Positions 34,375 through 62,421 of a stretch of DNA of 64,000 nucleotides are shown in pieces. The DNA is taken from positions 2,512-66,511 of the forward strand of contig CAZOKX010000003.1 in NCBI GenBank assembly GCA_964580785.1, written 5' to 3'. Position numbers and translations under genes: made by a program. The DNA comes from an uncultured bacterium. Lineage in GTDB: Bacteria; Chlamydiota; Chlamydiia; Chlamydiales; Rhabdochlamydiaceae. Numbering within the stretch: the stretch's first letter is position 1; every line of letters starts with the position of its first letter. A model generated the notes under the pieces. It saw only the letters and a list, made by a program, of their open reading frames with translations. It made no database searches and was not told the origin of the DNA.

Positions 34375-34495
34375 AACTTTAAAATCACAACAATTTAGCT
34401 TTCAGTGCGTTGGCTAGATGGGTAGCTGGATGGTTGGTTAGCTGTATGTATGGATTTCTGGGAAGTTTGTTGTTTGGGTGAATGAGTGATTGGGT

Positions 34496-36807: not shown

Positions 36808-36983
36808 GTTCTTCCAAGAGTTAAAGACTTAAGGTGATCTGCTTTATTGGGAAAATGGGTAGTTTGGTCTAGAAGATGACCATTTTTGAGTAGATGGGTC
36901 TTTTAATTAGGCGACTTTACCTAGTTGAAATCTACCTTATCATAGGTATCTAAAAAATAACAGGGCAAGCTTAAGAAATACTG

Positions 36984-37154
36984 CTATCTTTTGCTTATAC
37001 GATTTATTTTCGCCAACATAACTGCAAGTAGAACCGTCTGAGTAACAAGTGCGATGATGACGATCCAACCAAATATCTCCATACCCATGCAACAATTTTT
37101 CATCATGCCCATCATCTCATTATTGCCTTGCATCATGTTCATCTGCCCATCCAT
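36984..37154 (-). CDS. ORF absent from the supplied track: 56-aa Met-rich single-pass membrane peptide (possible Cu/metal-associated)
   Basis: Hand translation gives MDGQMNMMQGNNEMMGMMKNCCMGMEIFGWIVIIALVTQTVLLAVMLAKINRISKR. An AAGAGG Shine-Dalgarno lies 5 nt upstream. Downstream of the ATPase on the same strand. Confidence 0.4.
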   Translation of the reverse strand: MDGQMNMMQGNNEMMGMMKNCCMGMEIFGWIVIIALVTQTVLLAVMLAKINRISKR

Positions 37155-37189
37155 CAAAACCTCTTATTGAAAGCTTTTGTCTCTTGTTT

Positions 37190-37327
37190 TTAGTGGCAGC
37201 CTTTATGGTTGTCGTCATCCTTGTCTTTGCTTTTGTCTTTGCGTAGTCTCTTGATAAATGAGCCACCGCAACAGCCAAGCATGCAAACTGCTAGAACAAG
37301 TACTAAAATGATAGTTGTCCAATCCAC
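37190..37327 (-). CDS. ORF absent from the supplied track: 45-aa membrane peptide with Cys cluster (GTG start)
   Basis: Hand translation gives (M)DWTTIILVLVLAVCMLGCCGGSFIKRLRKDKSKDKDDDNHKGCH. Only a GTG start is available, and the Shine-Dalgarno is weak. Confidence 0.25.
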   Translation of the reverse strand: MDWTTIILVLVLAVCMLGCCGGSFIKRLRKDKSKDKDDDNHKGCH

Positions 37328-37374
37328 ACAGCACCCTTATTCTGGTCCGCCATTAATCTTATCGGTACAGGCTA

Positions 37375-39561
37375 TCATAATTTTTGTCTATTTAATCTCA
37401 GTGAATTCATAATCACAGATACGGAGCTTAGGGTCATCGCCGCGCTCGCAATAATGGGGCTCAGTAAAAGCCCAAATACTGGATAGAGTATCCCTGCCGC
37501 GATAGGAACTCCCAGAGTGTTGTAAATAAAAGCAAACCAGAGATTTTGCTTGATATTGCGCATTGTGGCATGGCTGAGTTTTCTTGCTCTTGTAATTCCT
37601 CTGAGGTCTCCTTTAACAAGAGTAATCCCTGCACTTTCAATGGCAATATCAGTCCCAGTGCCCATAGCGATGCCGACATTGGCTTGAGCTAGCGCTGGAG
37701 CATCATTGATGCCATCGCCAGCCATAGCTACAACCCGTCTCTCAGTTTGAAGACGTTTGATAATCCTGTTCTTATCCTCAGGTAATACCTCTGCTTCAAT
37801 TTCATCGATATCCAGCGCTTTTCCGACGGCTCTTGCTGTTGTCTTATTGTCCCCCGTTAGCATGACAATCCGAATGCCCTCTTTATGCAGCATTTCAATC
37901 GCTTCTTTTGTGGAGGCTTTAATGACATCTGAGACAGCAAGAATTCCGGCTAATTTCTCATCCATCGCTAGATATAAGACAGTTTGACCCTCCTGGCGAA
38001 AAGAGTCAGTTTTTTCTAAGGCGACACCCAAATCAATTTTTAGATCCGAGAGGAGCCTTTGATTGCCAATTGCTACCGTTTTTCCGCTTATTTTCCCAAC
38101 AATCCCTTTCCCTGTCACACTCTTAAAATCTTCTACAGGCAGTAAGGATACGCCTTTCTCTTTGGCCCTGGATACAATGGGAGTCCCTAATGGATGTTCA
38201 CTGGCGATTTCCAAGCTAGCGGCTACTTGAAGAAGTTCGTCCTCGCTTTTTTCCCCAAGACTCAAAATCGTTGTCAGTTTTGGTTTCCCTTCGCTTAGAG
38301 TTCCCGTTTTATCTACGACAACGGTGTTCACTTTAGACATCATCTCAAGAGCTTCCGCATTTTTGATTAAAATACCGGCCCTAGCCCCTTGACCCACACC
38401 AACCATAATGGACATGGGAGTCGCAAGACCCAGCGCACAGGGGCAAGCAATGATAAGAACCGCGACGGCGTTAATGAGCGCATGGGCAAAAGCAGGAGAT
38501 GGACCCACCAAACCCCAGATGATAAAAGTGATGATAGCTATAGCCACAACAACGGGGACAAAATAAGAAGACACTAGATCAGCAAGCTTCTGAATAGGCG
38601 CACGGCTCCGCTGTGCCTCGCTGACCATTTGAATAATCCTAGAGAGCAGAGTTTCACTGCCAACTTTTTCTGCCCGCATGATAAAACTTCCGCTACCATT
38701 CAAGGTAGCTCCTGTTACCTTGTCGCCAACATGTTTAGTGGCAGGGAAAGGTTCTCCAGTGATCATAGATTCGTCTATGGAGCTACTCCCTTCAAGGACG
38801 ACTCCATCCGTCGGGATTTTTTCGCCAGGTCTTACACGCAATGTATCGCCTTTTTTAACCTCCTCAAGCGGAATGTCTTTCTCACTTTTATCCTCTAAAA
38901 TCAGACGAGCTGTCTTAGGTGCTAAGTTCAGAAGCTCTCGAATCGCATGGCTTGTTCTATCTCTGGCCCGCAGCTCTAAAACCTGGCCTAAGAGAACTAA
39001 GACAGTGATCACACTAGCCGCTTCAAAATAGACGGGAATTTCATTGTTCTTGCTTTGAAAAGAGGGAGGAAAGATCGAGGGCCAGAATGCAGCAATCATG
39101 CTATAGAGGTAAGCAGCCCCTACACCAATGCTAATCAAGGCAAACATATTTAGATTGCGATGGATAACCGAACTCCAGCCGCGTGTGAAAAACGGCCATC
39201 CACCCCAGAGGACTATTGGAGTTGTAAGAGCTGCTTGAATCCAGATGTTAACAGTAGGCGAGAAGCCAAGAGAGAAGAGAGGCCCTACCATCGTAAAAAA
39301 TAAGATAGGCAATGTTAAGAAGAGACCAATCCAAAAACGCAGAGTCATTTCTTTTAGCTCTATATTTTCTTCTTTCTCTGCTGTAAAAATTTTGGGTTCT
39401 AAAGCCATTCCGCAGATAGGACAGCTTCCTGGTCCAGACTGTACAACTTGAGGATGCATGGGACAGGTGTATTCGGCAGGCCCATTATGAGGATTAGTGC
39501 TGTTTATTTTTTCAGAAGGGGAGCGATGAGAAGAAGAGCAACAGTTGGATTTTGATTTCAT
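37375..39561 (-). CDS. copA: Cu(I)/Ag(I)-type P1B ATPase
   Basis: 728 aa. N-terminal [26 protein letters not shown] metal-binding motif. TGEP, CPC ([12 protein letters not shown]), [11 protein letters not shown] and [10 protein letters not shown]. Confidence 0.85.
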
Positions 39562-39641
39562 GTCTTTGTATCTTTAAGAGCTTTTTTGTTTCTTTTCAGC
39601 TTCATTTTAAGCATTAAAATTTATAAGCTCTCTAACATTTG

Positions 39642-41474
39642 CTAAGCAACCTTGGTTAATCGAAAACTATGAAGAATCACGATCAGAGTGACTCCCACAT
39701 CGGCAAAAATCGCTAAAGCTAAATTACTCATCCCTGTTAAGGCCAGCAGAATAAAAATGAGCTTTATAGCAACAGCCAAAACAATATTTATTCGAATCGT
39801 CTGAAGGTTTTTTCTTCCTAAACGTATCAGAAAAGGCAGGCGGTTCAAATGGTCATTGAGAATGACAATCGAAGCAGCTTCTATAGCAGTGTCGCTTCCT
39901 AATTCACTCATGGTAATCCCTGCATTGGAGAGTGCTAAGGCGGGCGCATCATTGATTCCGTCTCCAACCATCGCGACCGTCGTGTATTTTGCTAAAAGCT
40001 CTTTTATCGCTTGAGCCTTATCCTCAGGAAGTAGATTCGCTTTGACATTTTCAATTCCTATCTTTTGAGCAACAGCAAGAGCAGATGTTTGATGGTCTCC
40101 CGTCAGCATGACAGGAGCGATCCCCATTTTTCTAATCTCTGCTATGACCTGTTTGCTTTCTGGCCGAATATTATCTTGCAGTCCAATAATGCCCTCGACT
40201 TCCTTGTGAGTACAAATCACAATCGCTGTTTTTCCTTCATCCTGTAATAAATTAATTTTTCGTATCACTTCATCTGAAACTCGATGCTCTTCTAAAATGA
40301 ATTCTAATTTTCCTATACAATGATGTTTGTCATCGCAAACCAAACAATCAGCCTGCGCCCCTTTACCCACTCTAATTTGAAAATTCTCTATAGGATGCAG
40401 AGTCAGATTTTCTTCTTGGGCCGCTTGCACGATGCTCTGCGCTAAAGGGTGCTCTGAGCGGCTTTCAATACCGGCTGCGCAACTTAAGAGGTGCTCTTTT
40501 GTCTGAGTGCCAAAAGGGATAACATCCGTGACGACTGGATTCCCAAATGTCAAAGTACGAGTTTTATCAAATGCAATGGCTTTGATCTTTCCCATGGCTT
40601 CGAGATACTTTCCGCCTTTTATCAAGATGCCTTTTTTAGCGGCGTTCCCAATAGCAGAATAGATAGAAACAGGAGTTGAAATCACTAAAGCACAGGGGCA
40701 TGCAATCACAAGAAGAGAAAGCGATTCTTGCAAACTCTGTTGAAAAGGTACCGAGAAAAAGTAAGGAGGGACAACCAACCAAACAAAAGCCAAAGCGACA
40801 ACAGCTGGCGTGTAGTAAGAAGAAAATACTTCAATGAACCTGTGAGTTTGAGCTTTTTGCTGAAATGCCTGCAAGGTGATTTCTTGAATTTTTGCTAAAG
40901 TAGTATTTTTAGCCAACTTTGTCACTTTGACTTCGATATATCCTTGCTTGTTTAAGGTTCCTGCAAAGACCGAGTCTCCTGCCATCTTATCTTTTGGAAT
41001 GGGTTCTCCTGTGATTGCTGCCTCATCCACAGCAGTAAACCCTGTGGTTAAAACGCCGTCCATAGGAATCATTTCCCCAGGCTTGACGATGATCACATCA
41101 TCGATATTGACTTCTTCAACTGAGACAGCACGACCAAGTTTTTTAATAAATGCAGTTTTGGGCATCCTTTCGGCCAAAGAACTCAGAGCTGCTCTGCTTG
41201 TTTCGATGCCATATTCTTCTAATTTTTCAGCAAGATTAAATAAGACAATGACGATAGCGGCTTCGATATACTTCTCTAGATAAAAAGCACCCACTGAAGC
41301 GATAACTATTAATAAATTTATGCTTTTAAAATTTAGGTGGAATAAAGCCTTCAACCCATCAACAATAGTTCTATGGCCTATCAAAAGAATGATCAGGAAG
41401 AAAAAAGGAAAAGCAAAGACAGTCGGGAAGTGGAAGCCCGAAAGGGATAAAGCCTCAAATATTCCGACGACCAA
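39642..41474 (-). CDS. Second P1B-type heavy-metal ATPase lacking an N-terminal metal-binding domain; non-canonical DKTRT phosphorylation motif
   Basis: 610 aa. TGEP, CPC (IACPCALVISTP), SEHPL and [10 protein letters not shown]. Reads FDKTRTLT instead of DKTGT (the Arg codon cgt is the complement of 40558-40560). Confidence 0.75.
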   Translation of the reverse strand: MVVGIFEALSLSGFHFPTVFAFPFFFLIILLIGHRTIVDGLKALFHLNFKSINLLIVIASVGAFYLEKYIEAAIVIVLFNLAEKLEEYGIETSRAALSSLAERMPKTAFIKKLGRAVSVEEVNIDDVIIVKPGEMIPMDGVLTTGFTAVDEAAITGEPIPKDKMAGDSVFAGTLNKQGYIEVKVTKLAKNTTLAKIQEITLQAFQQKAQTHRFIEVFSSYYTPAVVALAFVWLVVPPYFFSVPFQQSLQESLSLLVIACPCALVISTPVSIYSAIGNAAKKGILIKGGKYLEAMGKIKAIAFDKTRTLTFGNPVVTDVIPFGTQTKEHLLSCAAGIESRSEHPLAQSIVQAAQEENLTLHPIENFQIRVGKGAQADCLVCDDKHHCIGKLEFILEEHRVSDEVIRKINLLQDEGKTAIVICTHKEVEGIIGLQDNIRPESKQVIAEIRKMGIAPVMLTGDHQTSALAVAQKIGIENVKANLLPEDKAQAIKELLAKYTTVAMVGDGINDAPALALSNAGITMSELGSDTAIEAASIVILNDHLNRLPFLIRLGRKNLQTIRINIVLAVAIKLIFILLALTGMSNLALAIFADVGVTLIVILHSFRLTKVA

Positions 41475-41551
41475 TAAAGAAAATATCAGCCAACGAAATT
41501 TACTATCTTTAGTAAGTTTTATAGGAGACTCCGAGATGGTTGTTAGTCTAT

Positions 41552-41881
41552 TTATTTCTTGTTTTTAGAGACCATTTCAACTGCTTGGTCAGGAGTCATA
41601 TTCATGCCCTTTTGACTGGCCATTTGCATCGCTTGCTCTCGCTGCGCGTCGTTAAATTCTTCGCAAAACGTCTTTAAATTTTTATCATTCAGCTTATCGG
41701 AAAATCTTTTTGTCTCTTCTGAAAAGTTTTGACACTCTTTTTTATAATGATGCCTTTCATAGGGAGCATCCTTTCCAGCCGCTACTATCCCGCCCAAGTC
41801 TTGAGTATTTTCCGCATGTACAGAGCCAAAGCAACCAAAACAGACCATCGCGAGGGAGCCTACGATCTTTTGCATTTTCAT
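41552..41881 (-). CDS. Small secreted hypothetical protein in the metal island
   Basis: The track ORF runs to 41977; I prefer the start MKMQKIVGSLAMVCFGCFGSVHA (signal peptide) at 41881. The upstream extension overlaps the Cys-rich peptide ORF. Confidence 0.5.
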   Translation of the reverse strand: MKMQKIVGSLAMVCFGCFGSVHAENTQDLGGIVAAGKDAPYERHHYKKECQNFSEETKRFSDKLNDKNLKTFCEEFNDAQREQAMQMASQKGMNMTPDQAVEMVSKNKK

Positions 41882-41900
41882 TTTAAATCCTATGAGCTTT

Positions 41901-42038
41901 TCATTTACATGAAGGGCAATGGCATTCAGCACAAGTGCATTTTTCGGCTGATCCTTTGCAACCGCAGTCTCCAGCAAAGGCAGAAGAAATGAGCCCCAGA
42001 GTACATACTGCCATAAAGGTTAAGAAAATCTTTTTCAT
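41901..42038 (-). CDS. ORF absent from the supplied track: 45-aa secreted Cys-rich, metallothionein-like peptide
   Basis: Hand translation gives MKKIFLTFMAVCTLGLISSAFAGDCGCKGSAEKCTCAECHCPSCK. An AAGGAG Shine-Dalgarno lies 6 nt upstream. 7 Cys and 1 His in the 23-aa predicted mature part. Confidence 0.5.
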   Translation of the reverse strand: MKKIFLTFMAVCTLGLISSAFAGDCGCKGSAEKCTCAECHCPSCK

Positions 42039-42209
42039 ACGACGCTCCTTGAATTGGTTATAAAGATAAGTTTTTCTTCAAAATATGAGTTTTCTATTTT
42101 TTGTACAAGGTGCAATTGTCGGAACCGCAGAATACTGAAAATGCAATTTTAAAGAAATTGTTTTACCTATTCTCTTGTTTTTCTCTCGGATTTTCGATAT
42201 GGGAAAAGT

Positions 42210-43577
42210 ATGAACAAGCTCATTTTAAGCCCTTTCATTTGCTGCGCTCTTTTTCTTGCCGGATGTTCCGTTCGGTCGAGCGATTCCTCCTTTGAGACAG
42301 TTCGCGGAGTGATTGAAGAGCGGATTCCAGAAAAGATCGTTTGGCGCGAAGGAGCTCATGAAATTAAGACACAACTTCTGCAAGAGATTCAACAAGAAGG
42401 GCTAACCCAAGAAAAAGCAGTTCAACTCGCGTTGATTAATAATCCTGATTTATTTGCTTATTATGAAAACCTCGAGCTTGGATATGCAGATCTTCTTGAA
42501 GCAGGGCTGATGCAAAATCCCTTCTTTAGCGCTAGCGTCCGATTTCCTAGTCAATCAGGCTATCGTTTAAATAACTTATTTGATGCAGCTATCAGCTTTT
42601 TGGATCTTTTTCTCATCCCACTTCGCAAAAGAGCTGCCGAAGCTGAAATTAAAGTCATTGAAGCTGAAATTGGGCAAAGAGTTCTCGATCTTGTCAAGGA
42701 AGTGCAGATTCATTGGCTTGAGCTAAAAACCCTAGAAGTTCAGTTAAAGGAAGAAGGAAAACGCATAGAGTTGAAGCAGATGGCAGCAGCGTTGGCAGAT
42801 CTTCAATACAAGGCTGGGAATATCAATGCACTCACGGCAAGAACCCGAGAAATTGACTATCAAAATGCTGTAGAAAACCTCAAAGGGTTGGATGCTGACC
42901 TAGAATCTGCACGAGAAAAAATGAATAGGGCCTTAGGTCTCTTTGGGAAAGAGGCCTTTTGGAAAATTACTGGGGAGCTCGATGGAAATAAAGAACCCAA
43001 TCTACCCGATTTATATCAAATGGAGCAGGCAGCCGTAGAAAACCGGCTCGATATCGAGGCTGTCCGGCGAGAGGTTCATGCCATTGCGCAAAGAGCAAAG
43101 CTAAAAGCTTGGTGGACCTATGCTAACCTTTTGGTGGGAGTTTCTTCAGAGATGCAGCCAGAAGGATTTACAACGACAGGGCCTTCGATCGATCTTCAAA
43201 TTCCTATTTTCAACCACGGTCAAGGCGAAAAAAAGAGATACAATGCACAGTTAGAACAAGCACAAAAAAGGCTTCTCTCTAAAGCCGTACAAGCTTGTTC
43301 TGAGGTGAGAGAATTTTTTAAGACCGCTAGTAAATATCGATCCCAACTAGAAGATTTAGAAGTGAGAATCCTTCCCAACCTTGAGAAACAGATCATCGCT
43401 GGGCAGACTCACTACAATGTCATGACACTCGGAAGCTATGCCTTGCTTGATCTTAAAGAAAATGAAATTCAAGCAACCATTGAGCATGTACAGGCGCTAA
43501 AGCACTATAAAAAGGCAAGGATTGAGCTCCTTCATGCAGTAGGTGGATCATTTGCTCTTGTGAGGAAACAGGAATGA
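42210..43577 (+). CDS. TolC/OEP-family outer-membrane efflux lipoprotein
   Basis: 455 aa. Lipobox LFLAGCS. LTQEKAVQLALINNPDL, a typical OEP N-terminal motif. Two coiled-coil-rich halves. Confidence 0.8.
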   Translation: MNKLILSPFICCALFLAGCSVRSSDSSFETVRGVIEERIPEKIVWREGAHEIKTQLLQEIQQEGLTQEKAVQLALINNPDLFAYYENLELGYADLLEAGLMQNPFFSASVRFPSQSGYRLNNLFDAAISFLDLFLIPLRKRAAEAEIKVIEAEIGQRVLDLVKEVQIHWLELKTLEVQLKEEGKRIELKQMAAALADLQYKAGNINALTARTREIDYQNAVENLKGLDADLESAREKMNRALGLFGKEAFWKITGELDGNKEPNLPDLYQMEQAAVENRLDIEAVRREVHAIAQRAKLKAWWTYANLLVGVSSEMQPEGFTTTGPSIDLQIPIFNHGQGEKKRYNAQLEQAQKRLLSKAVQACSEVREFFKTASKYRSQLEDLEVRILPNLEKQIIAGQTHYNVMTLGSYALLDLKENEIQATIEHVQALKHYKKARIELLHAVGGSFALVRKQE

Positions 43578-45361
43578 GGTATCTGCTGCTGCTCTTAGTA
43601 GTGCTTTTTGGATGTAGTAAACAAGAAAAGAACTCTGTCATCACCCCGAATACTACTAAACTTCCTTGGATCATTGAGGATGGAGTCAAAGTCTTTCACC
43701 TGATTGCAGAGCCAGTCAAGCAGGAGTTTGCACCTGGACTCATTGTTAACTGCTGGGGGTACAATGGAAGCACTCCAGGGCCAACTATTGAAGCAACGGA
43801 AGGAGAGAGGGTACGCATCTTAGTCACGAACCATCTACCAGAGCCTACCACCGTTCATTGGCATGGAATTCTTGTTCCAAACAGCATGGATGGAGTGACA
43901 GGTCTCAATCAAGCTCCGATTCCTCCTGGGGAAACTTTTACCTATGAGTTTACTTTAAAGCAGCATGGCACCTATATGTACCATCCCCACTTTGACGAAA
44001 TGACCCAGATAGGAATGGGCATGATGGGCTTCTTTATCATTCATCCCAAAGAACCTTCATCTCAGCCTGTCGATAGGGACTTTGCGATCTTTGTCCATGA
44101 ATGGTACATCCCCTCTGGAGCATCGACTCCCGATCCGATGGTGATGCTCGATTTCAATTATTTCACTTTTAATGGGCGCATTTATCCAGGTACAGACCCA
44201 CTTGTTGTGAAAAAAGGGGAACGGGTGAGGATTCGCTTTGCCAACTTAAGCATGGATAACCACCCCATCCATTTACATGGCTTTGCTTTTACTGTCACAG
44301 GATCTGGAGGATGGACGCTACCTAAAAGCGCTCAATATTTAGGAAATACGATCGACGTAGTTGTCGGCAACACCCATGACATTGAATTTGTAGCCGATGA
44401 ACCTGGCGATTGGGCTCTTCATTGCCATAAGACGCATCATACCATGAGCGGAATGGAGCATAACATTCCCAATATGATCGGTGTCGATCAGGGAGAATGG
44501 GCAGATAAGATCCAAAAAGTCCTTCCCGACTATATGCCGATGGGAGAGACGGGGATGGGCGAGATGTTTGAGATGAGCTGGCATGTGAAAAGGCCTCCTA
44601 ATTTTCTGCCCTATAGCTCTCCTGGTCCTTTTGGGCTTATTGACATGAGTGGCATGTTTACTGTCGTAAAAGTACGGGAAGGAATTACCAATTATAATGA
44701 TCCAGGCTGGTATGCAGAGCCATCTTCCCCTGTACAGCAAGAGACTCCATCTAAAATGCAGCACGGTCAGATGAAAATGGATGGCATGTTGCAACAGGAT
44801 GAATCTTCAAAGCAAGACATGCCAGCAGAAATGAAAATGGACTCTACCCAGATGAATCAGGAAATGACCCATCCAGATCATATGGCAGGTGGACATACGC
44901 ATAATACGGGGGCATTTGAGATAGGAGATCTCCATCCGGTTCTTCTTCATTTTCCGATTGTTCTTTTCTTTATGGTTTTTGCGTTTGATTGCCTATTTCT
45001 TATCGGAAAAATCAAAGAACCTTACCACAGTGTCTCCCACTGGACCGTTATCGTTGCTGCGGCGTTTGCAATCCTTACTGTCATTACAGGTCTATATGCA
45101 GCTAAATTAGGCCATCCAGGCAATGCTTATGTTATTTTGCATAGAAATTGGGCTCTAGGCACGTTGGCCTATAGCATAGGGCACGCAGTTTTTAGAGGCT
45201 ATGTCATCAAGAGCAAGAAGGTCTTTTCAGCATGGGTCTTCGTGTTGATTAGCTTAATCAATGTAAGCTTGATAGGTGTCACGGCAGAGTACGGGGGATT
45301 GGTCACTCGAGGAAAAAGCCTTTGGATGCACTATCTATATCAAGGAAATAAGAAATCATAG
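43574..45361 (+). CDS. Multicopper oxidase (CopA/PcoA-like) fused to a Met/His-rich linker and a C-terminal 4-TM domain
   Basis: 595 aa. Copper-site motifs HWHG, HPH, HLHG and HCHKTHHTMSGM. Linker MQHGQMKMDGM…EMKMDSTQMNQEMTHPDHMAGGHTH. Four hydrophobic helices at the C-terminus. Confidence 0.8.
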   Translation: MRYLLLLLVVLFGCSKQEKNSVITPNTTKLPWIIEDGVKVFHLIAEPVKQEFAPGLIVNCWGYNGSTPGPTIEATEGERVRILVTNHLPEPTTVHWHGILVPNSMDGVTGLNQAPIPPGETFTYEFTLKQHGTYMYHPHFDEMTQIGMGMMGFFIIHPKEPSSQPVDRDFAIFVHEWYIPSGASTPDPMVMLDFNYFTFNGRIYPGTDPLVVKKGERVRIRFANLSMDNHPIHLHGFAFTVTGSGGWTLPKSAQYLGNTIDVVVGNTHDIEFVADEPGDWALHCHKTHHTMSGMEHNIPNMIGVDQGEWADKIQKVLPDYMPMGETGMGEMFEMSWHVKRPPNFLPYSSPGPFGLIDMSGMFTVVKVREGITNYNDPGWYAEPSSPVQQETPSKMQHGQMKMDGMLQQDESSKQDMPAEMKMDSTQMNQEMTHPDHMAGGHTHNTGAFEIGDLHPVLLHFPIVLFFMVFAFDCLFLIGKIKEPYHSVSHWTVIVAAAFAILTVITGLYAAKLGHPGNAYVILHRNWALGTLAYSIGHAVFRGYVIKSKKVFSAWVFVLISLINVSLIGVTAEYGGLVTRGKSLWMHYLYQGNKKS

Positions 45362-45526
45362 AAGCTGCATGCGACACAGCACAATCCTTTTTAATGGGCT
45401 GAAATTTAATAGCTTATGATGTTTGACAAATATGGAGACAGCTGCTTCCCTAATTTAAAGATATGGGCTTGTGTTCATCCGCCAGCTTATTGAAGTTAAA
45501 CGCAGCGGATCAACACAACTTCTTAG

Positions 45527-45826
45527 CTAGGTGTTGTTTTTGAGTGCAGATTTCTTTTTCCAGTAAATGAATAGGCAAGAGCTTCCTACAAGAGCGAATG
45601 TAGCTGAGATAAGATACGGATTCATCGGAGGGGGAGCTTCTTCCATTTCCAGCAGAATTTCATCAAACTCTTCTTCCTCCTCAGGGAAAAAGTCCCAGAT
45701 CAGTGTAATTGCAGCAAAACTTATCAGAATATAGCCAATAAATTTTAGGCGCTTATTCAGTGTTCTTTCGGTCTCGGGTTGTTTTGCCGCTGGCTTCAAT
45801 TTGCTTCCTTCTTGGATGCAGATCAC
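45527..45826 (-). CDS. Hypothetical 2-TM membrane protein
   Basis: 99-aa ORF with two hydrophobic helices flanking an acidic EEEEEFDEILLEMEE segment. Confidence 0.35.
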   Translation of the reverse strand: MICIQEGSKLKPAAKQPETERTLNKRLKFIGYILISFAAITLIWDFFPEEEEEFDEILLEMEEAPPPMNPYLISATFALVGSSCLFIYWKKKSALKNNT

Positions 45827-46050
45827 CCATCAGCTTCCGCATAACCAATTTAAAGTTTCCTTGCAAGGAGGTAAGTCGTTGATATGCCTTGAGTTTCAGT
45901 TAAAAATTTACTTTATAACTAATTGAGCAGAAAATCGACTAATTTACGAATTGCTGCTCGATATTCCTTAACCCAGTCAAACATATCTAATTTAATATCA
46001 AAGGGTTTTGAAAATATGGGAGTATCCGCCGCGTTTGCGATGCTTAAACA

Positions 46051-46086
46051 CGGCGGATAAATTGCAACAATCCATTTTATCCGCCG
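46051..46086. repeat. Perfect 11-bp inverted repeat CGGCGGATAAA / TTTATCCGCCG with a 14-nt spacer
   Basis: Read directly. A third TATCCGCCG copy lies at 46023-46031. Confidence 0.6.
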
Positions 46087-46159
46087 GTTTGGCAAAAGCA
46101 TGCATTGAAATAATTAGTTCATCTTGCAAATCACCATTTTTTTAATCCCTTTTCAAGAG

Positions 46160-46320
46160 TTCGTCCCTCATAAAGCGGCCGTAAATCGACATTTTGCTTT
46201 TTGTTGATGCTTTTTTATGTCCAAAAATTGGGCCGCAAATCATCAAATGACTATTTGCAGCCGCTTTTTTCATGTCAAAGATTAGGCCGTAAATATGCAA
46301 ATGCATATTTACAGATTGAA
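46160..46320 (+). repeat. About 3 tandem copies of a ~54-bp repeat upstream of the ATPase gene
   Basis: The GGCCG(T/C)AAAT core starts at 46177, 46231 and 46285 (spacing 54 and 54). Units 2 and 3 align along most of their length (TTTTTTATGTCCAAAAATTGGGCCGCAAAT… / TTTTTTCATGTCAAAGATTAGGCCGTAAAT…). Confidence 0.6.
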
Positions 46321-46365
46321 ATCCTAGAGGATAACCTGTATGATAGGATTAAAAACGGAGCAACT

Positions 46366-47799
46366 ATGGATCAATCTCCATTTATTGGTAGAGAAGCCGA
46401 AATGGATCGGCTTAAAGGGCTTTTAAAAAAGAAAAGCGCGAGCTTGATTGTAGTGCGTGGCCGTCGAAGAATTGGGAAAAGCAGACTTCTTGCTGAGTTT
46501 GGCAAGGAGATGAAAAGTCTTTTCTTTACTGGCACACCGCCAAGGCGTAAAACGACAGCGCAGTTTCAACGAGAGGAGTTTGCTCGTCAGCTTGCGAGAG
46601 CGGGAATGCCAGGTATTCAACCAGATGATTGGGGAAATATGTTTTGGCATCTTTCCAAGCATACCGGACGGGGGCGTGTTTTAATTGTTTTGGATGAAGT
46701 GTCCTGGATGGGAAGTAAAGACCCTGAGTTTTTAGGAAAATTAAAAAATTCATGGGACATGTATTTTAGCAAGAATCCCCAGCTAATCCTGATTTTATGT
46801 GGCTCGATCTCTTCATGGATTGAGGAAAATATTCTAAGCAGCACGGGTTTTGTCGGTAGGATCACGATTGATTTGGTTCTCGAAGAACTCCCATTGAATG
46901 TGTGCAACGCCTTTTGGCGGCCCAAAGAAAAAATGGTCTCCGCCTACGAGAAATTTAAGCTTCTTTCTATCACAGGGGGAGTTCCTCTCTATCTAGAGCA
47001 AATTAGACCAGATCTCCCAGCAGAGCAAAATATTCGGGATCTTTGTTTCACGAAAGGCGGTCTACTCGTCAGAGAATTTGAGGAAATATTTTCAGATATC
47101 TTTTCTCGCAGCAATGCAACCCATAAAGAGATCATTGGATGTTTGGCAGATGGGCCCAAAGAACTTGTACAAATTTGCAAGGAACTGGGCAAAAATCAAG
47201 GAGGAAGATATAGCAAACATCTCGAAGATCTCGTTAAAGCAGGCTTTGTACAAAGGGATTTCTCCTGGCATTTGAAAAGCGGAAAGGAGAGTAAGTTAAG
47301 CCGCTTTCGTCTAAGTGATAATTACCTAAGATTTTATCTAAAATATATCGCTCCAAATCATTCCAAGATCAACAGAGGTGGTTTCTCAAATTTAATGCTC
47401 ACGAACCTCCCAGGGTGGGATGGTGTTATGGGATTACAATTCGAGAATCTGGTCTCCCATAACCGAAAAATTCTTTGGAAGATGATAGGAATCCCTCCTG
47501 AAGAAATCGTAATGGACGGGCCATTTTTCCAGAATGCGGCTGCGAGGCAGCCTGGGTGTCAAATCGATTACATGGTTCAAATGCGATTTAATACCCTGTA
47601 TATTTGCGAAGTAAAATTTTCTAAAAACCCTATAGGTCCGCGAGTGATTGAAGAGATGAAAGAGAAAACAACGCGTCTGAAAGTCCCTAAACGATTTTCA
47701 ATCAGACCCGTGCTGATCCATGTAAATGGAGTAGAAAATTCCGTTTTAGATGAAGGGTACTTTGATAAGGTCATCGATTTTGGTCAGCTTTTGATATAA
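46366..47799 (+). CDS. AAA/STAND-like ATPase (archaeal-ATPase type) with DUF234-like C-terminal domain
   Basis: The start is moved to MDQSPFIGRE at 46366 (GGAG 6 nt upstream); the track's first 55 codons translate the tandem repeats. FIGREAEMDRL…VVRGRRRIGKSRLL Walker A. VLIVLDEVSWM Walker B. Confidence 0.7.
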   Translation: MDQSPFIGREAEMDRLKGLLKKKSASLIVVRGRRRIGKSRLLAEFGKEMKSLFFTGTPPRRKTTAQFQREEFARQLARAGMPGIQPDDWGNMFWHLSKHTGRGRVLIVLDEVSWMGSKDPEFLGKLKNSWDMYFSKNPQLILILCGSISSWIEENILSSTGFVGRITIDLVLEELPLNVCNAFWRPKEKMVSAYEKFKLLSITGGVPLYLEQIRPDLPAEQNIRDLCFTKGGLLVREFEEIFSDIFSRSNATHKEIIGCLADGPKELVQICKELGKNQGGRYSKHLEDLVKAGFVQRDFSWHLKSGKESKLSRFRLSDNYLRFYLKYIAPNHSKINRGGFSNLMLTNLPGWDGVMGLQFENLVSHNRKILWKMIGIPPEEIVMDGPFFQNAAARQPGCQIDYMVQMRFNTLYICEVKFSKNPIGPRVIEEMKEKTTRLKVPKRFSIRPVLIHVNGVENSVLDEGYFDKVIDFGQLLI

Positions 47800-47800
47800 C

Positions 47801-48316
47801 TCACTCTTTTACAAGCTTATTGTCATTAAAGCTAAACGCAATCATCGCTATGGAAATAAGATTTATAACCAGGGCAATCGAGAACCCGTAAAAATTAGGG
47901 AGTTGTAGCAAGAAAGGAATGGCCAGCGCTCCGTATCGGCAAGCAAAAGCGTAGCGTATAACTGACTGAAAATCATTAATCCGCTCTGAATAAGCCGCTG
48001 CCGCAACAGGAAATACATTTCCAAAGACCCCATTGATTATAGAAGCAATACCCAGCAAAAGTGGGAACTGCTCTTTAGAACATAGAGGTTTTCCAATCAA
48101 CATCGTTAGCATGGATAAGAGTATGCAAGAAATCGTAAGGAGAAGAATTTTTTTCCTAGAACCTTTATCGGACATGTACCCTTGAAGAGGGGATCCTAGA
48201 GCAAATCCAATAAGAAATACAAACATAAGGAACTGCCATTTTTCTTGTTCGAGACAGCATTTAAGTAGGCACCCTCGGGAAAACCACTGACAGAAAATCG
48301 AATAGAGAAACAGCAT
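47801..48316 (-). pseudogene. Truncated MFS transporter (N-terminal half only)
   Basis: 171 aa. MFS motif A-like GYMSDKGSRKKILLL and a TetA-like AAAYSERIND. The ORF stops 2 nt from the end of the ATPase gene, and the C-terminal six helices are absent. Confidence 0.55.
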
Positions 48317-48426
48317 AATGACCTACTTAATTTATTTTTTTGAGCTTACCCATTTAACCACGAGAAATCAAGCAGAGACTCCCGTCAAAAAGTCTAAAGG
48401 TATGCTGCAAACAACTTCTCATGAGG

Positions 48427-48466
48427 ATTCATCCCGAAAATGACAATTGCTAATTTCGGGATGAAT
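48427..48466. terminator. Perfect 13-bp stem hairpin (ATTCATCCCGAAA / TTTCGGGATGAAT, 14-nt loop), T-run on the + strand
   Basis: Read directly. Lies between the stop of ORF 48517-48942 and the MFS remnant's start. Confidence 0.45.
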
Positions 48467-48516
48467 TTTTGCCTTCAATTTTGGATCCCCAAAATGGCAT
48501 TTGCTGATTTACGGAC

Positions 48517-48942
48517 TTAAAGCACCTTAAATTTATAGAAAAAGCATTCGGGATTTTGACAAACACCATTCCCGTCTGTCTTAACGTCACAATTAGGGCA
48601 AGGACCTTTTGTTTTTTCCTTCTTTGCTGCCGCTAACTCTATACCATGACTAAAACTTCCCTCTATAAAGTGGCCATTCCTATTAAATTGTAAGAGGGGA
48701 AGAGGAGAAAATTCGGATCCATTCAAATTAATAAAAAGGCCTTGATGCGTAGGAACAATATTTTCTGGACGAATGAAAATCTTATCTCCGTCAAAAGCAG
48801 ACACGCAGTATCCATGATTTTCAACGATTTTGTGGATTAAATGGTGCTCTGTTGTTTCAATTGGAACCATCTCCGCGTGCAAGGAACCAATCGCTCCTAA
48901 AAAGGCTGAGATCATCAAACTGAAAAGTTTTCTCTTGATCAT
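48517..48942 (-). CDS. Secreted hypothetical protein
   Basis: 141 aa. Signal peptide MIKRKLFSLMISAFLGAIGSLHA. C-terminal Cys cluster CPNCDVKTDGNGVCQNPEC. Confidence 0.55.
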   Translation of the reverse strand: MIKRKLFSLMISAFLGAIGSLHAEMVPIETTEHHLIHKIVENHGYCVSAFDGDKIFIRPENIVPTHQGLFINLNGSEFSPLPLLQFNRNGHFIEGSFSHGIELAAAKKEKTKGPCPNCDVKTDGNGVCQNPECFFYKFKVL

Positions 48943-49108
48943 ATTGAACTCCAGTTAGGGTAAGTGTAGGTGACTTTTGCAAGTCAAATAAATTTTCTAG
49001 CACCAGCTGATTTAAGGCAAGCGTTCATAGAAGAGTTCGAGTAAATTATCTTGTTTGAAACCATGGGCGCTTCTACACTTGATTTCCCATACGTTTAGGT
49101 AAGAGATT

Positions 49109-50134
49109 ATGCAGCGCAAGAGAACCAGTCTGATTTATGTCTTGATGATATTTTTGATGCTTTTTACTGCCTGTTCTTCGCCATATCCAGAGCAATCCAA
49201 AAAGTTCGAACTTACGGCTGAAGAACACATTTGGCTAGAGAAATTTTTCCGCTATTTCATGCTACATGAAACGACGATCTATACGCTTGCAGGTTCAAAG
49301 CCTTTAACTAGAATGATTCTTTGCTATGAAGATACGCCGGAAGAGCAGCTCAGAGAAGAGAAACGAGAAGAGTATCTTTATTTCTTATTGAATAGAAGTA
49401 ACGAAAAGGACATGCAGTTCTATGAAAAACTTTCACCTCTAGAAAAAGAAGAAAAAGCACTACTTATCGATGACAAAGACTTCATTTATAATATTGAAGA
49501 ACTATGGGAAAAATGGGAAAAGATACAACACCGCTTTCCCATTAAGAAGCGGTTTCTCCTGTTAAAAAAAGAGCGACCTAAAGAGGATTCAAAAGAGACG
49601 GCTATATACTACGATGTTCTATTTGTCGATGTGCTAAAAACAGCTCTCGTTATTCAGGAGAATTATGAGCTATTTAGGAAGACTGTAGGATATGATTTCG
49701 ACCCGCTTGAAGTTGTATTTGAACTAGAAAACAAGCACTCTAATTTTTGGGAGAAGCTTCGAGGAAAAGAGGGATGGAGATACGCTACCCTATGGGGAAT
49801 TCTATACGGTTTTGGTAGAGAAAATGCTTTTGTCTACACTTGGAAAGGCAGAAATACAAAAGAGCCCCACCGAACTCAACAAGAAAAGCTTTGGGCAGCA
49901 AGCCTTCCATCATGGAGTAGCTGTAAGAACAGACCTTCTTGTGATGATAAAGGCGCTTTTACTCTCTCAAATTTTACCATCCCAGTATTTAAGTCTTTCA
50001 TTGAGAACGACCCTGTCGTTGCTAAGTATGAAGCAGAAAGAGAAAATATCAAGCAGCTCTATAAGGGAAAGGATTTTGTTGCTTATACCTTAGAGCTGCT
50101 CACAGAGCTGCCAGATGCGGAGAAAGAAAAATAA
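49109..50134 (+). CDS. Hypothetical lipoprotein
   Basis: 341 aa. Lipobox LFTACSS. Glu/Lys-rich. No family recognised. Confidence 0.55.
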   Translation: MQRKRTSLIYVLMIFLMLFTACSSPYPEQSKKFELTAEEHIWLEKFFRYFMLHETTIYTLAGSKPLTRMILCYEDTPEEQLREEKREEYLYFLLNRSNEKDMQFYEKLSPLEKEEKALLIDDKDFIYNIEELWEKWEKIQHRFPIKKRFLLLKKERPKEDSKETAIYYDVLFVDVLKTALVIQENYELFRKTVGYDFDPLEVVFELENKHSNFWEKLRGKEGWRYATLWGILYGFGRENAFVYTWKGRNTKEPHRTQQEKLWAASLPSWSSCKNRPSCDDKGAFTLSNFTIPVFKSFIENDPVVAKYEAERENIKQLYKGKDFVAYTLELLTELPDAEKEK

Positions 50135-50706
50135 TGAAAAATGAACAAGTGCCTCCAGTAAAAGTTGAGAAATTCCATCTGGGAATCTATGTGATTATCA
50201 CTAAAGGAGACAGTGTTCTGCTCGTAAAAAAATCACGAGGCCCCTATCGAGGTAAATGGGATTTGCCTGGAGGCTCTCCTCTGCATGGAGAATCGATCTT
50301 ACAGACCCTTCATAGGGAAGTGTTTGAGGAGACTGGAGTGCGTCTTGATTGTGTAGATCATCACAAAAATATAGCTTTCACTGTTGAATACAAAGAGGGC
50401 GGCAAGAGAATTTCTCTTCATCATATATGTCTCGTCTATATGGCAAGAGACTCCTTCGATACCTCTGGGTTTATAGAAAAGGTGGAAAAGGAAGACGTTA
50501 GTGAATGCGCCTGGATCAAAAGATCTCAGCTATTGGGAAAGTTTCCGACTTCAAAAGTTTTTCGCTATAGCTATGGAGGGGAGACCCCTCTTAATGAAAA
50601 TAGGGAAAAATCTCATAAGAAAGTCAAAAACAGACAGAAAAACGGGCCAAATGGCTTTTACACCTTTGGGAGATTAGAGAAGACAAAAGGCACTAAAAAA
50701 GAGTGA
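50134..50706 (+). CDS. Nudix hydrolase with basic C-terminal tail
   Basis: 190 aa. Nudix box GGSPLHGESILQTLHREVFEETGV. The ATG overlaps the upstream stop. Confidence 0.8.
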   Translation: MKNEQVPPVKVEKFHLGIYVIITKGDSVLLVKKSRGPYRGKWDLPGGSPLHGESILQTLHREVFEETGVRLDCVDHHKNIAFTVEYKEGGKRISLHHICLVYMARDSFDTSGFIEKVEKEDVSECAWIKRSQLLGKFPTSKVFRYSYGGETPLNENREKSHKKVKNRQKNGPNGFYTFGRLEKTKGTKKE

Positions 50707-50770
50707 TCTTTCTCTTGGCATCTCAGTAAAAAAGTTGAGGATTTAAAAGAAATTCAGTAAATTGACCTCT

Positions 50771-51325
50771 ATGAACATTCGACAGAGCTATCAGTCTTTA
50801 GTGGATAAGTATAAGGGTGGTAACCAGATCATCAGAAAGATGGGGTTGTACGGCTTATTTATTCAGATTGGTGCCATTGGTGCTATCAATGCCTGGAAGC
50901 CTCTGCAGATAGGTTATTATCATATTGCAGTGCCAGCTCTCTTTACTGTCTCTGTTTATTATCTTGTTAAAGATTTTTTTGTTTTACGCCGCATTGAAGA
51001 GAATATGGGGCGGATGATTTTAGAAGGAATAGATCACGAGACCAAAAACCCTGCTCTTGGAAATTTTTTTCATAGAGTGCTCCAATCCTTCAACTTTTCA
51101 CGCACCCTTATACAAAGGTCTCTGGTTAATGTTTTGTCCCTAGGATGTTTAGGGTATTTGATGCTTCAGTTTGTTAGGGAAATGAATCCGGATGTTGCCA
51201 TTAGCCAGTGGTTTCTCGGTTTGTTCACTTGGATACCTGGTGTTATAGCCACAAAACTGTACTATGATTCTCTCAAAGATCTTGACGAGGCAAAAGAAAG
51301 AGTTTTTGCCAAACAATCTTCCTAA
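50771..51325 (+). CDS. Hypothetical membrane protein
   Basis: The track start at 50762 is TTG; the first ATG (MNIRQSY) is at 50771. About 4 hydrophobic helices. Confidence 0.5.
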   Translation: MNIRQSYQSLVDKYKGGNQIIRKMGLYGLFIQIGAIGAINAWKPLQIGYYHIAVPALFTVSVYYLVKDFFVLRRIEENMGRMILEGIDHETKNPALGNFFHRVLQSFNFSRTLIQRSLVNVLSLGCLGYLMLQFVREMNPDVAISQWFLGLFTWIPGVIATKLYYDSLKDLDEAKERVFAKQSS

Positions 51326-52311
51326 GAAACAAGCTGAACTTTTTCTGTTGCATTACTCTCTTGGGACGTCTTGTCATAGGCGCAAACCATGGCAGCGCTA
51401 GAATGCCCCGTCACTTTCATGATATCGGTGTCCTGGAAACCTTGTTGTTTCAAATAGGTCACTGTCGAAGCTCTGAGCACATGAGGCGTTACCTTGAAGG
51501 GAATGCCGGCAGCTTTTCCAGCCTTTTCAAACATTTGGGCAAGCCTTGTCATCATAACAGGTTTTCCTGACCGAGTGATAAAAACAAACCCAGTTCTTTC
51601 TCCGAGATAGCATTTGAGCTTATCCATGACGCTCTGTGGGTAAGTGATAACAGTAGCCTTTCTCGTCCCTTTAGTCTTGGATTGCTCAAAGATGATTTTT
51701 CTTCGTTCCCAGTCGATATTTTGAGTTTGAAGAATTAAAACTTCGTTAGCCCGCTTTCCACCTTGAAGGATCAACTTTGCAATCAAGCATTCTCTCGGAC
51801 TGATCTCTTCCAGAGCGTCTAAGAATAAAACCCATTGAGATTGGCTCATTGCCGCTGTTTTGACCTTATCGTAGACCTTAAAAAAGGTTTTCGCGTGTCC
51901 CTCTCTATTAGCAATGGCTCTACTAATGATTCCTTTCGATCGCCTATGGAGAAATTTTGTAAAAGAGATATAGCAGGCAGCGCGAGATTGCCGACTGCAT
52001 TCAGTCCAAGTTGAGACTAACTTGATTTGATCGATGATGGCTTCATGATTGACCAAGGAAAAACCTTGTAAATTGAGAAGGGGAGAGAGCAGCCCTATTT
52101 CAGCAAGCTTGCGTAGTCCAGATTGGTAATTAATGCGTGTTCGAGGAGTTAGGGTTGAAAGCCACAGCTCAGCGGCTTCTTGAACGGTGACCTTTTCTAA
52201 TTGCTGCCATATTGCATTTGATTGAGTGTTCCTTGCCTCTTCAAAGCTGTTAGCGCTTGGAAGTTCTAAGCCACTTGTATTTATTATCGTCAAAGACATG
52301 TTCTTCTCCAT
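51322..52311 (-). CDS. Tyrosine recombinase resembling the chlamydial plasmid integrases Pgp7/Pgp8
   Basis: 329 aa. …[11 protein letters not shown]…[12 protein letters not shown]…[56 protein letters not shown] closely parallels my recollection of pGP8-D (…[51 protein letters not shown]). Confidence 0.8.
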   Translation of the reverse strand: [329 protein letters not shown]

Positions 52312-52344
52312 TTAATGTTTATAAATAGCATTATAAACATTAAA
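52311..52344. promoter_or_regulatory. Perfect 14-bp-arm palindrome abutting the integrase start codon (candidate operator or recombination core)
   Basis: TTTAATGTTTATAA-ATAGCA-TTATAAACATTAAA, read directly. Confidence 0.5.
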
Positions 52345-52442
52345 AATGCATCAAAAAAAATCAAGCTATCTACTTGGAGACTAGGATCTGAAAGATCTTA
52401 GGAACATTTAGATTTATGTGGATAAGAGAATCTTAGAATTCA

Positions 52443-52763
52443 GTGGCTATTAAAACTATTGACGCCTTATATTCCTTGTTGCTACAGATACAAAAAACCC
52501 AAGGAAATCAAATGACTCAAGCGCCCATACAACAAATCCAAGCTAGCGATGAAGAGACAATCAACACAGTTGAACCAATCGCAAAGTCTAATAAAAAAGT
52601 TAAATTTTCAGCCTATTTGACTGAAGAAGCAGAAAAGGCGTTAGCAGAACTCTATACCACACGTTACATGAAGGACAGGAAGACGGATCGCTCAGCGATT
52701 GTCAGCGAAGCCATTCTGGATTTTTATCAGAGAGAAAGCCCTACAGAACAGCAAAATATGTAA
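52443..52763 (+). CDS. Ribbon-helix-helix DNA-binding protein divergent from the integrase
   Basis: 106 aa (GTG start; an alternative ATG lies at 52512). C-terminal KVKFSAYLTEEAEKALAELYTTRYMKDRKTDRSAIVSEAILDFY is RHH-like. A hairpin plus T-run follows the stop. Confidence 0.5.
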   Translation: MAIKTIDALYSLLLQIQKTQGNQMTQAPIQQIQASDEETINTVEPIAKSNKKVKFSAYLTEEAEKALAELYTTRYMKDRKTDRSAIVSEAILDFYQRESPTEQQNM

Positions 52764-52814
52764 CGGAAACACCCAGTCGGTCCATTTGGGTTTTTGTATT
52801 ACATACTGCCTTTC

Positions 52815-56423: not shown

Positions 56424-56583
56424 AACTCCTTCTATTTAAATTTGTTTATACAAAGCCCATTCTGTCAGATCTTTTCTTTAGGAGCAATTACCCTTCTATA
56501 ATGCTTTCTTGCTAAATTGCTATAGTTCTGTTATGGCAGGAATTAAAGAAACCGCTTTAGATCAGCACTTTGCTGGGAGGATT

Positions 56584-57561: not shown

Positions 57562-57715
57562 AATGAGATAGGGGATTCTGAAAGGAATGAGCAATGGTTT
57601 TAAAGAATTCAAAATCCATAGCCATCCATATTTACGAAGTCTTAGATTCCTTGATTTTTGCAAGCCCAAAAAATATTATTTCGTATAAAGTACACTAGAT
57701 AGATAGGAAACTGGT

Positions 57716-58519: not shown

Positions 58520-58526
58520 AAACTCT

Positions 58527-61214: not shown

Positions 61215-61228
61215 ATTCGAGTATTATT

Positions 61229-61468: not shown

Positions 61469-61485
61469 CTCGGAAAATCGGCAAA

Positions 61486-62403: not shown

Positions 62404-62421
62404 TGCTCTTGCCTTGAGAAT

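Follow-up and report, generated by a model that had tools for sequence, protein, structure and literature searches.

A split terL–portal junction as the shared accessory-gene compartment of a probable family of chlamydial phage-plasmids

The window analysed here, a stretch of 64,000 nucleotides from an uncultured bacterium of the Rhabdochlamydiaceae (contig CAZOKX010000003.1 of assembly GCA_964580785.1), contains a tailed-phage gene set in which the gene for the large terminase subunit (terL) and the portal gene, normally contiguous, are held 16 kb apart by copper/metal-resistance and other accessory genes. We consider it probable that the window represents most of a chlamydial phage-plasmid of about 99 kb, in which the ~42-kb genome of a contractile-tailed myophage is combined with a chlamydial plasmid backbone (a Pgp1-like primase-helicase, ParA, iterons and a tyrosine recombinase of the Pgp7/8 family), and that the terL–portal gap is the accessory-gene compartment shared by the family of such elements, not a newly inserted island. 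Confidence in any specific biochemical role of the recombinase is much lower than in this overall picture.

Phage and plasmid genes on one molecule

By annotation and protein-level comparison, the window is colinear with the circular 89.5-kb plasmid of Criblamydia sequanensis CRIB-18 (pCrib, NZ_LK031773.1). The primase-helicase, ParA and neighbouring genes of the two are 50–78% identical (replication proteins 65–78%, helicase 72%); DUF1064, the methylase, the putative small terminase subunit (terS) and terL are 84–88% identical (terL 87.5%); most virion proteins are 75–97% identical, including the major capsid protein (MCP, 96.8%) and the portal (89.7%), with some at 44–68%; and the recombinases are 59% identical. 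A megablast search with the gap gave pCrib terL as its sole match in the plasmid collection and no match in the phage collection. The virion set in the window is complete, comprising by Pfam and PHROG assignment terL, the portal, a MuF-like head morphogenesis protein, a protease, the major head protein, sheath, a tube-like structural protein, a chaperone, the tape measure and a baseplate wedge; the PHROG matches make up a full head and contractile-tail set, in a gene order that matches near-complete phage genomes. Plasmid functions are located on the same molecule, namely a DnaG–DnaB fusion (781 aa; NCBIfam), ParA and an iteron-like array that probably marks the origin, and the helicase, ParA and associated genes co-occur on the same contigs in five relatives as well.

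341-1562, iteron-like array of 10-nt repeats, five pairs of CTTGTTTAC(A/G), 3' of the replication genes
3283-5628, Pgp1-like primase-helicase, on the same contig as the recombinase
6224-7003, ParA (Pgp5-type), on the same contig as the recombinase

The contig that holds the window (C3, 69.5 kb) belongs to a 1.73-Mb assembly that is 95% complete. Its start overlaps the start of a second contig (C22, 29.1 kb) by 55 bp, and the first ~10 kb of the latter (1.3–10.4 kb) carries phage early genes, as does pCrib at 42.7–50 kb; a self-overlap of C3 was looked for and not found. Together, the two contigs make up the ~99 kb proposed for the element. Further along C22, the region at 10–29 kb codes for a 1722-aa RHS/YD-repeat protein and secreted proteins.

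The split junction in relatives

The wide separation of terL and portal on one strand, which the initial annotation had pointed out, is confirmed: the two genes are both on the (−) strand, and 16,007 bp (36808–52814) lie between them. The non-phage genes that it had listed within the gap were likewise recovered from the open reading frame (ORF) layout and Pfam matches, that is, two P-type ATPases, an outer-membrane protein (OMP), a multicopper oxidase (MCO), an ATPase, an MFS remnant, a Nudix hydrolase, and secreted and membrane proteins. The genes at the edges of the gap are as follows.

54157..54645, (−) strand, putative terS, assigned by position only; overlaps the start of terL by 8 nt
52815..54164, (−) strand, terL, upstream edge of the gap; Terminase_6N (E 3e-27), Terminase_6C (E 3e-16) and PHROG 979 (E 4e-162)
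35350..36807, (−) strand, portal, first gene of the virion block and downstream edge of the gap; Phage_portal_3 (E 3e-89)

The putative terS, which matches no Pfam, PHROG or NCBIfam entry, is always found directly upstream of terL and is 80–92% identical in members of the family and 27–40% identical in the sister phages described below.

A scan of one genome per species yielded 33 terL loci, about 20 of them at 86–90% identity and nearly all in metagenome-assembled genomes (MAGs) of Chlamydiota. Both genes are present at 17 of the genome-contig loci, and at each of these a homologue of the recombinase (57–80% identical) comes after terL on the same strand; beyond it, where the contigs reach, an AAA ATPase gene on the opposite strand and then the portal gene are found. 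The terL-to-portal gaps measure 3.5, 4.6, 5.2, 6.0, 7.1, 14.4, 15.8, 16.0, 19.0 and 25.7 kb, pCrib and the window included, and the recombinase is still present in minimal gaps of 3.5 kb (L010) and 3.9 kb (L051). A Pgp1-like helicase is present on the same contigs as these terL loci. The contigs of four relatives close as circles of 70.1, 91.3, 93.2 and 96.4 kb, with terminal overlaps of exactly 55 or 77 nt, and pCrib is recorded as a circular plasmid. Because the complete circular pCrib and many independent contigs show the split, it is not an assembly artefact.

Some copies of the family are located in larger replicons or in unexpected genomes. Among L015, L016, L020, L031 and L033, some lie in very large contigs (0.35–2.3 Mb); on chromosome-size contigs (at least 1.9 Mb) the copies appear degraded, the portal being truncated in L016 and absent from L015, and the 11.8-kb contig of L031 contains gene fragments only. 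The copies in large contigs and that of L031 look like integrated, decaying remnants. Family contigs also occur in MAGs labelled Verrucomicrobia, Bacteriovoracaceae or Puia (L012, L017, L018 and L025); these labels probably reflect the misbinning of a mobile element with a high copy number, and a host range wider than the chlamydiae may also lie behind them. In one Chlamydiae MAG (L022, 143-kb contig), a distant terL (71%) is followed by non-phage genes for DUF6624, an M61 peptidase and an aldo-keto reductase, with no recognisable portal within 10 kb of terL.

Sister phages with an intact junction

A sister clade was found in IMG/VR with the same virion gene order and with terL 67–75%, portal 54–64% and MCP 69–78% identical. 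In 14 contigs of this clade, fewer than 100 nt separate terL from portal. Five of the contigs are near-complete genomes of 37.7–44.5 kb (CheckV 90–100%, two with terminal repeats), and neither a PF00589 recombinase nor a Pgp1-like helicase was found when these five were searched. Taken one gene at a time, a complete sister genome of 41.9 kb (G010) matches the phage portions of C3 and C22. In a Firmicutes outgroup with the same string of ParB-methylase, terS and terL, the portal comes next, at a distance of 19 nt from terL. Since the sister phages and this outgroup keep the two genes together, the contiguous terL–portal junction is taken to be ancestral.

Read against the sister map, plasmid DNA has apparently entered a phage of ~42 kb at no fewer than two positions, the terL|portal junction and the junction between tail-fibre and early genes. 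The fusion is common to the whole family and probably occurred in its common ancestor; it is not specific to the present element or to a metal-resistance plasmid. Upstream of DUF1064, the region 56509–64000 codes for a Band_7/SPFH protein, a 677-aa protein and small ORFs without counterpart in pCrib or the sister phage, and is a second cargo region.

Backbone and cargo within the 16 kb

The near-empty relative L051 allows the gap of the window to be dissected. Within its 3.9 kb, terL is followed by the 106-aa ORF, the palindromic site, the recombinase (80%), the AAA ATPase (74%) and the portal, and alignment with it resolves the 16 kb into 3.4 kb of backbone and two cargo blocks of 9.3 and 3.3 kb. 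The four segments and the genes in them are given below, from terL to portal.

52814-51040 (1.8 kb), backbone present in L051: 106-aa ORF, site, recombinase and start of the 187-aa ORF
52443..52763, (+) strand, 106-aa ORF, divergent from the recombinase and part of the 'type A' module
51322-52311, (−) strand, tyrosine recombinase of the Pgp7/8 family, type A; Phage_integrase (PF00589), E 2e-22
50762-51325, (+) strand, membrane ORF of 187 aa, its 5' part in block 2
47784-51039 (3.3 kb; 146 bp in L051), cargo block 2: MFS remnant, Nudix, secreted and membrane proteins
50134-50706, (+) strand, Nudix (Pfam NUDIX)
49109-50134, (+) strand, lipoprotein-like ORF of 341 aa
48517-48942, (−) strand, secreted ORF of 141 aa
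47801-48316, (−) strand, MFS fragment (MFS_1)
47783-46157 (1.6 kb), backbone present in L051: AAA ATPase module
46201-47799 (module from 46157), (+) strand, AAA ATPase with winged helix-turn-helix; ATPase_2, AAA_22, AAA_16 and HTH_5
36875-46156 (9.3 kb; 387 bp in L051, 486 bp in L010), cargo block 1: copper/metal resistance, in the divergent AAA–portal intergenic region
45527-45826, (−) strand, membrane ORF of 99 aa
43574-45361, (+) strand, multicopper oxidase–DUF2231 fusion
42210-43577, (+) strand, TolC/OEP outer-membrane protein
41552-41977, (−) strand, ORF of 141 aa
39642-41474, (−) strand, second P-type ATPase; CPC and SEHPL, with DKTRT for DKTGT
37375-39561, (−) strand, CopA-like P1B ATPase; N-terminal HMBD, CPC, DKTGT and SEHPL

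Homology of the backbone to relatives stops 18–82 nt upstream of the portal ATG. In block 1, the ATPase at 37375-39561 has all P1B signatures (CPx in the transmembrane region, the nucleotide-binding SEHPL and the phosphorylation motif DKTGT), and the second ATPase deviates only at DKTGT, which is otherwise universal; its DKTRT variant is kept in the orthologues of pCrib (33098–34975), L006 and L008 and is thus a trait of the subfamily, not a lesion. The OEP–MCO pair is found in the same slot of L005 at 88–92% identity, and homologues of the metal genes are also found elsewhere in relatives, at 33–41.6 kb in pCrib and upstream of DUF1064 in pCrib, L009, L017 and L018. Several secreted and membrane ORFs of the gap have no family match. 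The 106-aa ORF is kept (56–61%) only in elements with a type-A recombinase (L004, L005, L050 and L051) and gave no informative match in Pfam, PHROG, PADLOC or PDB; a guess that it codes for a ribbon-helix-helix protein was unsupported by the family and structure searches.

The AAA ATPase matches the PADLOC model PDC-S27 over its full length (E 8.5e-80), making it a defence candidate, and is 70–75% identical and portal-adjacent in L006, L008, L010, L016, L017 and L051; a second allele (28% identity) occupies the same place in L004, L005, L015, L021 and L050. Together with the AbiE genes in the pCrib gap, the two alleles resemble a defence or accessory hot-spot. The true start of the ATPase is probably the ATG at 46367, not the listed 46201, because homology and the PADLOC model both begin there. 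Upstream of it, within 46157–46366, a region at 46209–46314 contains a 54-bp tandem repeat (two copies, 81% matches) and a hairpin with a 12-bp stem.

Neither att-like repeats nor a compositional boundary came to light. Self-alignment, which the initial annotation had proposed for finding att-like repeats, gave chance-level similarity only at the gap edges, and no flanking repeats above chance appeared there or at the joints of either insertion; the best cross-edge repeats were one of 19 nt at 79% identity and a 9-mer; a shared run of at least 9 nt is seen in 13% of random window pairs. No tRNA gene is present as a possible att target. Profiling of GC content and codon usage revealed no boundary at the gap in the comparison of island and virion block that the initial annotation had also proposed: the metal block has a GC of 0.439 and a relative synonymous codon usage (RSCU) correlation of r 0.91 with the chromosome, the virion block reaches r 0.94, and block 2 is somewhat AT-richer (GC 0.394, r 0.80). 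In the suggested comparison with elements that lack the cargo, L051 has a near-empty gap and the sister phages have less than 100 nt, and variable cargo occupies the same position across the relatives.

The recombinase and its candidate site

The assignment of the recombinase as Pgp7/8-like is correct, with 45–49% identity to both integrases of Chlamydia plasmids over 93–96% of the length; it is 70% identical to the integrase of the Simkania plasmid pSn, and the non-chlamydial matches listed show at most 30% identity at a query coverage of at least 37%, apart from one at 35.6% over 22%. The catalytic residues R187, H277-x-x-R280, H303 and Y312 are invariant in seven aligned recombinases. The best NCBIfam match is XerA (E 6e-22), below the cut-off, and the nearest solved structures in the PDB are Xer-like 4a8e and XerA 5hxy. 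Pgp7/8 is reported, in passages of Koestlbacher et al. 2021 (PMC7846284), to be chlamydia-specific and of viral origin; it is believed to resolve plasmid multimers, and Pgp8 is required for plasmid maintenance (PMC11577247). Present after terL throughout the family and absent from the five near-complete sister genomes, the recombinase is on these grounds a piece of plasmid backbone and not the integrase of an island.

The 'perfect palindrome' of the initial annotation is real as well. Located at 52311..52344, it has 14-nt arms at 52311–52324 and 52331–52344 (TTTAATGTTTATAA / TTATAAACATTAAA) around a 6-nt spacer, ATAGCA, adjoins the ATG of the recombinase gene and occurs once in the 1.73-Mb assembly. 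Because the site abuts this ATG and overlaps the 5' end of the gene, the recombinase gene is probably autoregulated through it. A single copy of the pattern TGTTTATAA-N6-TTATAAACA is located between terL and the recombinase gene at all 19 of the relatives' loci that hold both genes (17 genome contigs and two IMG/VR contigs), in pCrib and in the window. The 9-nt arms are identical at all these loci except L005, which has one mismatch. Nine versions of the 6-nt spacer occur, and the site lies 0.4–4.4 kb from terL. The core site of a simple tyrosine recombinase is expected to show this pattern, in which the arms are conserved and the spacer is free to change. No other half-site was found in the window, the cargo boundaries included, so that capture of cargo by the recombinase at specific sites is unsupported. 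A scan of IMG/VR for the pattern gave 24 matches, four of them family members and the rest unrelated, mostly AT-rich contigs (GC 0.23–0.33); because unrelated contigs thus match by chance, the motif alone is not diagnostic and its context carries the weight.

Five elements have the recombinase type of the window (type A), which is characterised by 14-nt arms, the spacer TGCTAT, a site at the ATG and the divergent 106-aa ORF; they fall into one clade of the terL tree (support 93/87), and this type groups with the recombinase of Simkania pSn (100/100). Inheritance of the recombinase module thus follows the backbone for the most part, with at least one swap in place. The first 8 nt of the iteron repeats are the same as the arm of the type-B recombinase site (CTTGTTTATAA) of other family members, which could be coincidence or shared recognition.

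Discussion

The results described above lead us to propose that the Pgp7/8 recombinase and its site are a piece of plasmid backbone placed exactly at the former terL|portal junction, and that three intergenic slots around it form an accessory bay: the first from terL to the site, the second between the convergent stops of the recombinase and AAA genes, and the third between the divergent starts of the AAA and portal genes. In the present element, a 9.3-kb copper/metal efflux and oxidation set would have entered the AAA|portal slot and a 3.3-kb block the recombinase|AAA slot. We speculate that the recombinase resolves plasmid multimers and possibly re-circularises packaged DNA by acting on the palindrome, and that the cargo arrives by general or illegitimate recombination with the chlamydial plasmid pool, not via the recombinase. 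The junction may tolerate cargo because the late genes were divided into two units from the time the plasmid module was inserted. Judged from sequence, multimer resolution or circularisation in the manner of Xer/dif or Cre/loxP is the most likely role of the recombinase and site.

Several observations weigh against parts of this proposal. As for the extent of the element, C3 and C22 are joined at one end only, the circle is not closed, and both contigs run into multicopy repeats on the outer side. As for the fusion, plasmid genes stand at two separate places of the phage map, which one simple cointegration does not explain. As for the recombinase and its site, a search near the integrase of Simkania pSn found no copy of the motif, and a search of PLSDB returned only pCrib and chance Xanthomonas matches, so that motif and Pgp7/8 are linked within the phage-plasmid family only; a scan for promoters and terminators showed no enrichment over shuffled sequences and was uninformative; and the recombinase and terL trees are partly incongruent, pCrib and L053 changing partners, which implies that the module is sometimes exchanged.

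The initial annotation had raised the size of the cargo as a problem for packaging, and the concern is valid and larger than was stated there, in that the circular relatives measure 70.1–96.4 kb and the present element ~99 kb, against 37.7–44.5 kb for the near-complete sister phages. The MCP is 72–78% identical to that of these phages at an unchanged length (309 vs 310 aa), and an MCP comparison of two members (pCrib, 89.5 kb, and L010) gives ~96–97% identity, in a family whose circular members differ by 26 kb; the nearest cultured relatives of the MCP (36–42% identity) have genome records of 28–62 kb, mostly 48–62 kb. These values suggest one of two things, a larger capsid or the packaging of no more than a part of the element. 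By analogy with phage P1, the recombinase and palindrome may have been placed so as to lie in the first-packaged, terminally redundant DNA, where they would re-circularise injected DNA and resolve dimers, with either an enlarged capsid or a sub-genomic headful initiated from the terminase genes; we regard this arrangement as rather unlikely.

An unlikely possibility, in our estimate, is that a domesticated head with a capacity of ~42–45 kb packages sub-genomic headfuls, in the manner of a gene transfer agent (GTA) or transducing particle, with the bay, downstream of terS and terL, packaged first. The disparity between elements of 70–99 kb and sister phages of 37.7–44.5 kb with a similar MCP of the same length favours such packaging, as do the near-constant MCP of the two members despite the spread of sizes in the family and the mostly 48–62-kb genomes of the cultured MCP relatives. 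However, the triangulation (T) number of a capsid can shift with few substitutions or via the scaffold, the protease/scaffold protein is only 43–51% identical to that of the sister clade, and all virion genes are intact and highly conserved, as for an infectious phage. If sub-genomic headfuls were indeed formed, the bay and the virion genes would be packaged, and the bay would act as a built-in cassette favoured in transduction, by which genes for metal resistance and defence spread through intracellular chlamydiae.

The earlier suggestion of a cointegrate between a phage and a plasmid stands in the sense of an older chimera of a phage with a plasmid backbone and fails as a recent, element-specific fusion with a metal-resistance plasmid; likewise, the recombinase through which the two were thought to have fused is of the plasmid kind, with no sign that it made the fusion. 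A recent event, in which a free phage and a metal-resistance plasmid were fused in the present host by Pgp7/8 at the palindrome, would agree with the absence of the plasmid-family recombinase from the five near-complete sister phages searched and with the frequency of metal genes as cargo of chlamydial plasmids. It is nevertheless distinctly unlikely, since the chimeric architecture is found in about 20 elements of several chlamydial lineages, which makes the fusion old; moreover, there is a single copy of the site where a fresh cointegrate has two, the metal genes are separated from the site by the recombinase, block 2 and the AAA gene, and the same metal genes occur at other loci in relatives. 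That the gap is a discrete mobile island or integrative and mobilizable element (IME), which entered site-specifically at the terL–portal junction with its own integrase at the edge, is highly improbable and not borne out: a tyrosine recombinase with an adjacent palindrome does stand at one edge, and the cargo is non-phage and differs between relatives, but every family member has the recombinase and site whatever its cargo, L010 with its gap of 3.5 kb included, the recombinase type tracks the terL clade, neither flanking direct repeats nor a second copy of the site was found, no compositional edge exists, and the 16 kb consists of two separate insertions split by the semi-conserved AAA gene. 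The lack of repeats and of a compositional change at the edges is also what the initial annotation had named as grounds for rejecting such a reading.

Returning to the old phage-plasmid chimera with a shared bay, the family has the look of a group of tailed phage-plasmids by which genes for copper/metal resistance, defence and metabolism pass between environmental chlamydiae. To our knowledge, the known phages of chlamydiae are small microviruses, and no tailed phage has been described for Chlamydiae, term searches having found no such paper. If the family does move genes, obligate intracellular bacteria would have in it a channel for gene flow. The sister phages, in which the junction is intact, provide a before-and-after pair for the fusion of phage and plasmid and for the tolerance of cargo, and the sizes of 70–99 kb against 37.7–44.5 kb raise the question of capsid capacity and packaged content. 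The target and role of Pgp7/8 have so far been presumptive; the conserved palindrome is a concrete candidate site that makes the question testable. Passages of Koestlbacher et al. 2021 (PMC7846284) report 'phage group' genes on plasmids of C. sequanensis and P. massiliensis, with a putative prophage origin, and do not describe the split junction or the site; in term searches of the literature, no account of the split junction, the site or the sister phages came up.

The present element is worth comparing with known systems, of which pCrib is the closest. The two share the order of the backbone, with terL, site, Pgp7/8 recombinase, cargo and portal in succession, and both carry metal-resistance cargo. 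In pCrib, however, the gap of 25.7 kb contains wholly different cargo, namely two AbiE toxin–antitoxin pairs, genes of glycogen and nucleotide metabolism and an RND efflux system, whereas the metal genes are at another locus (33–41.6 kb); its recombinase is of another type (59% identical), with a site that has the spacer AGCCGC and lies 190 nt upstream.

In phage P1, the Cre/loxP system is located near the pac site and terminase genes, resolves dimers and can cyclise terminally redundant DNA. Like the members of the present family, P1 is a phage-plasmid with replication and partition genes and has a tyrosine recombinase beside a site with inverted arms close to the terminase genes. Unlike them, it has a spacer of 8 nt against 6 nt here, its module does not split terL from portal, and there is no variable cargo bay of 3–26 kb; a sequence relationship beyond the tyrosine-recombinase fold does not exist. 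The single-recombinase Xer/dif systems (XerA/dif, XerS/difSL and XerH/difH) show the dif-like geometry that is also seen here, with a 6-nt spacer beside the recombinase gene, but the recombinase of the window scores well below the cut-offs of those families and does not count as an orthologue; as a member of the Pgp7/8 clade it is carried on a plasmid and specific to chlamydiae, and no FtsK-type control is known for it. Finally, the moron and defence hot-spots of prophages (P2/P4) and the variable regions of phage-plasmids resemble the bay in having a fixed position in the backbone, interchangeable accessory genes and defence candidates. In clear contrast to them, the bay is situated inside the normally contiguous packaging-to-head string, reaches up to 26 kb and is anchored on a plasmid-maintenance recombinase instead of phage genes. 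The window adds a further, copper/metal-loaded member, sister phages with an empty site, the dissection of a gap into two insertions and a swap of recombinase type.

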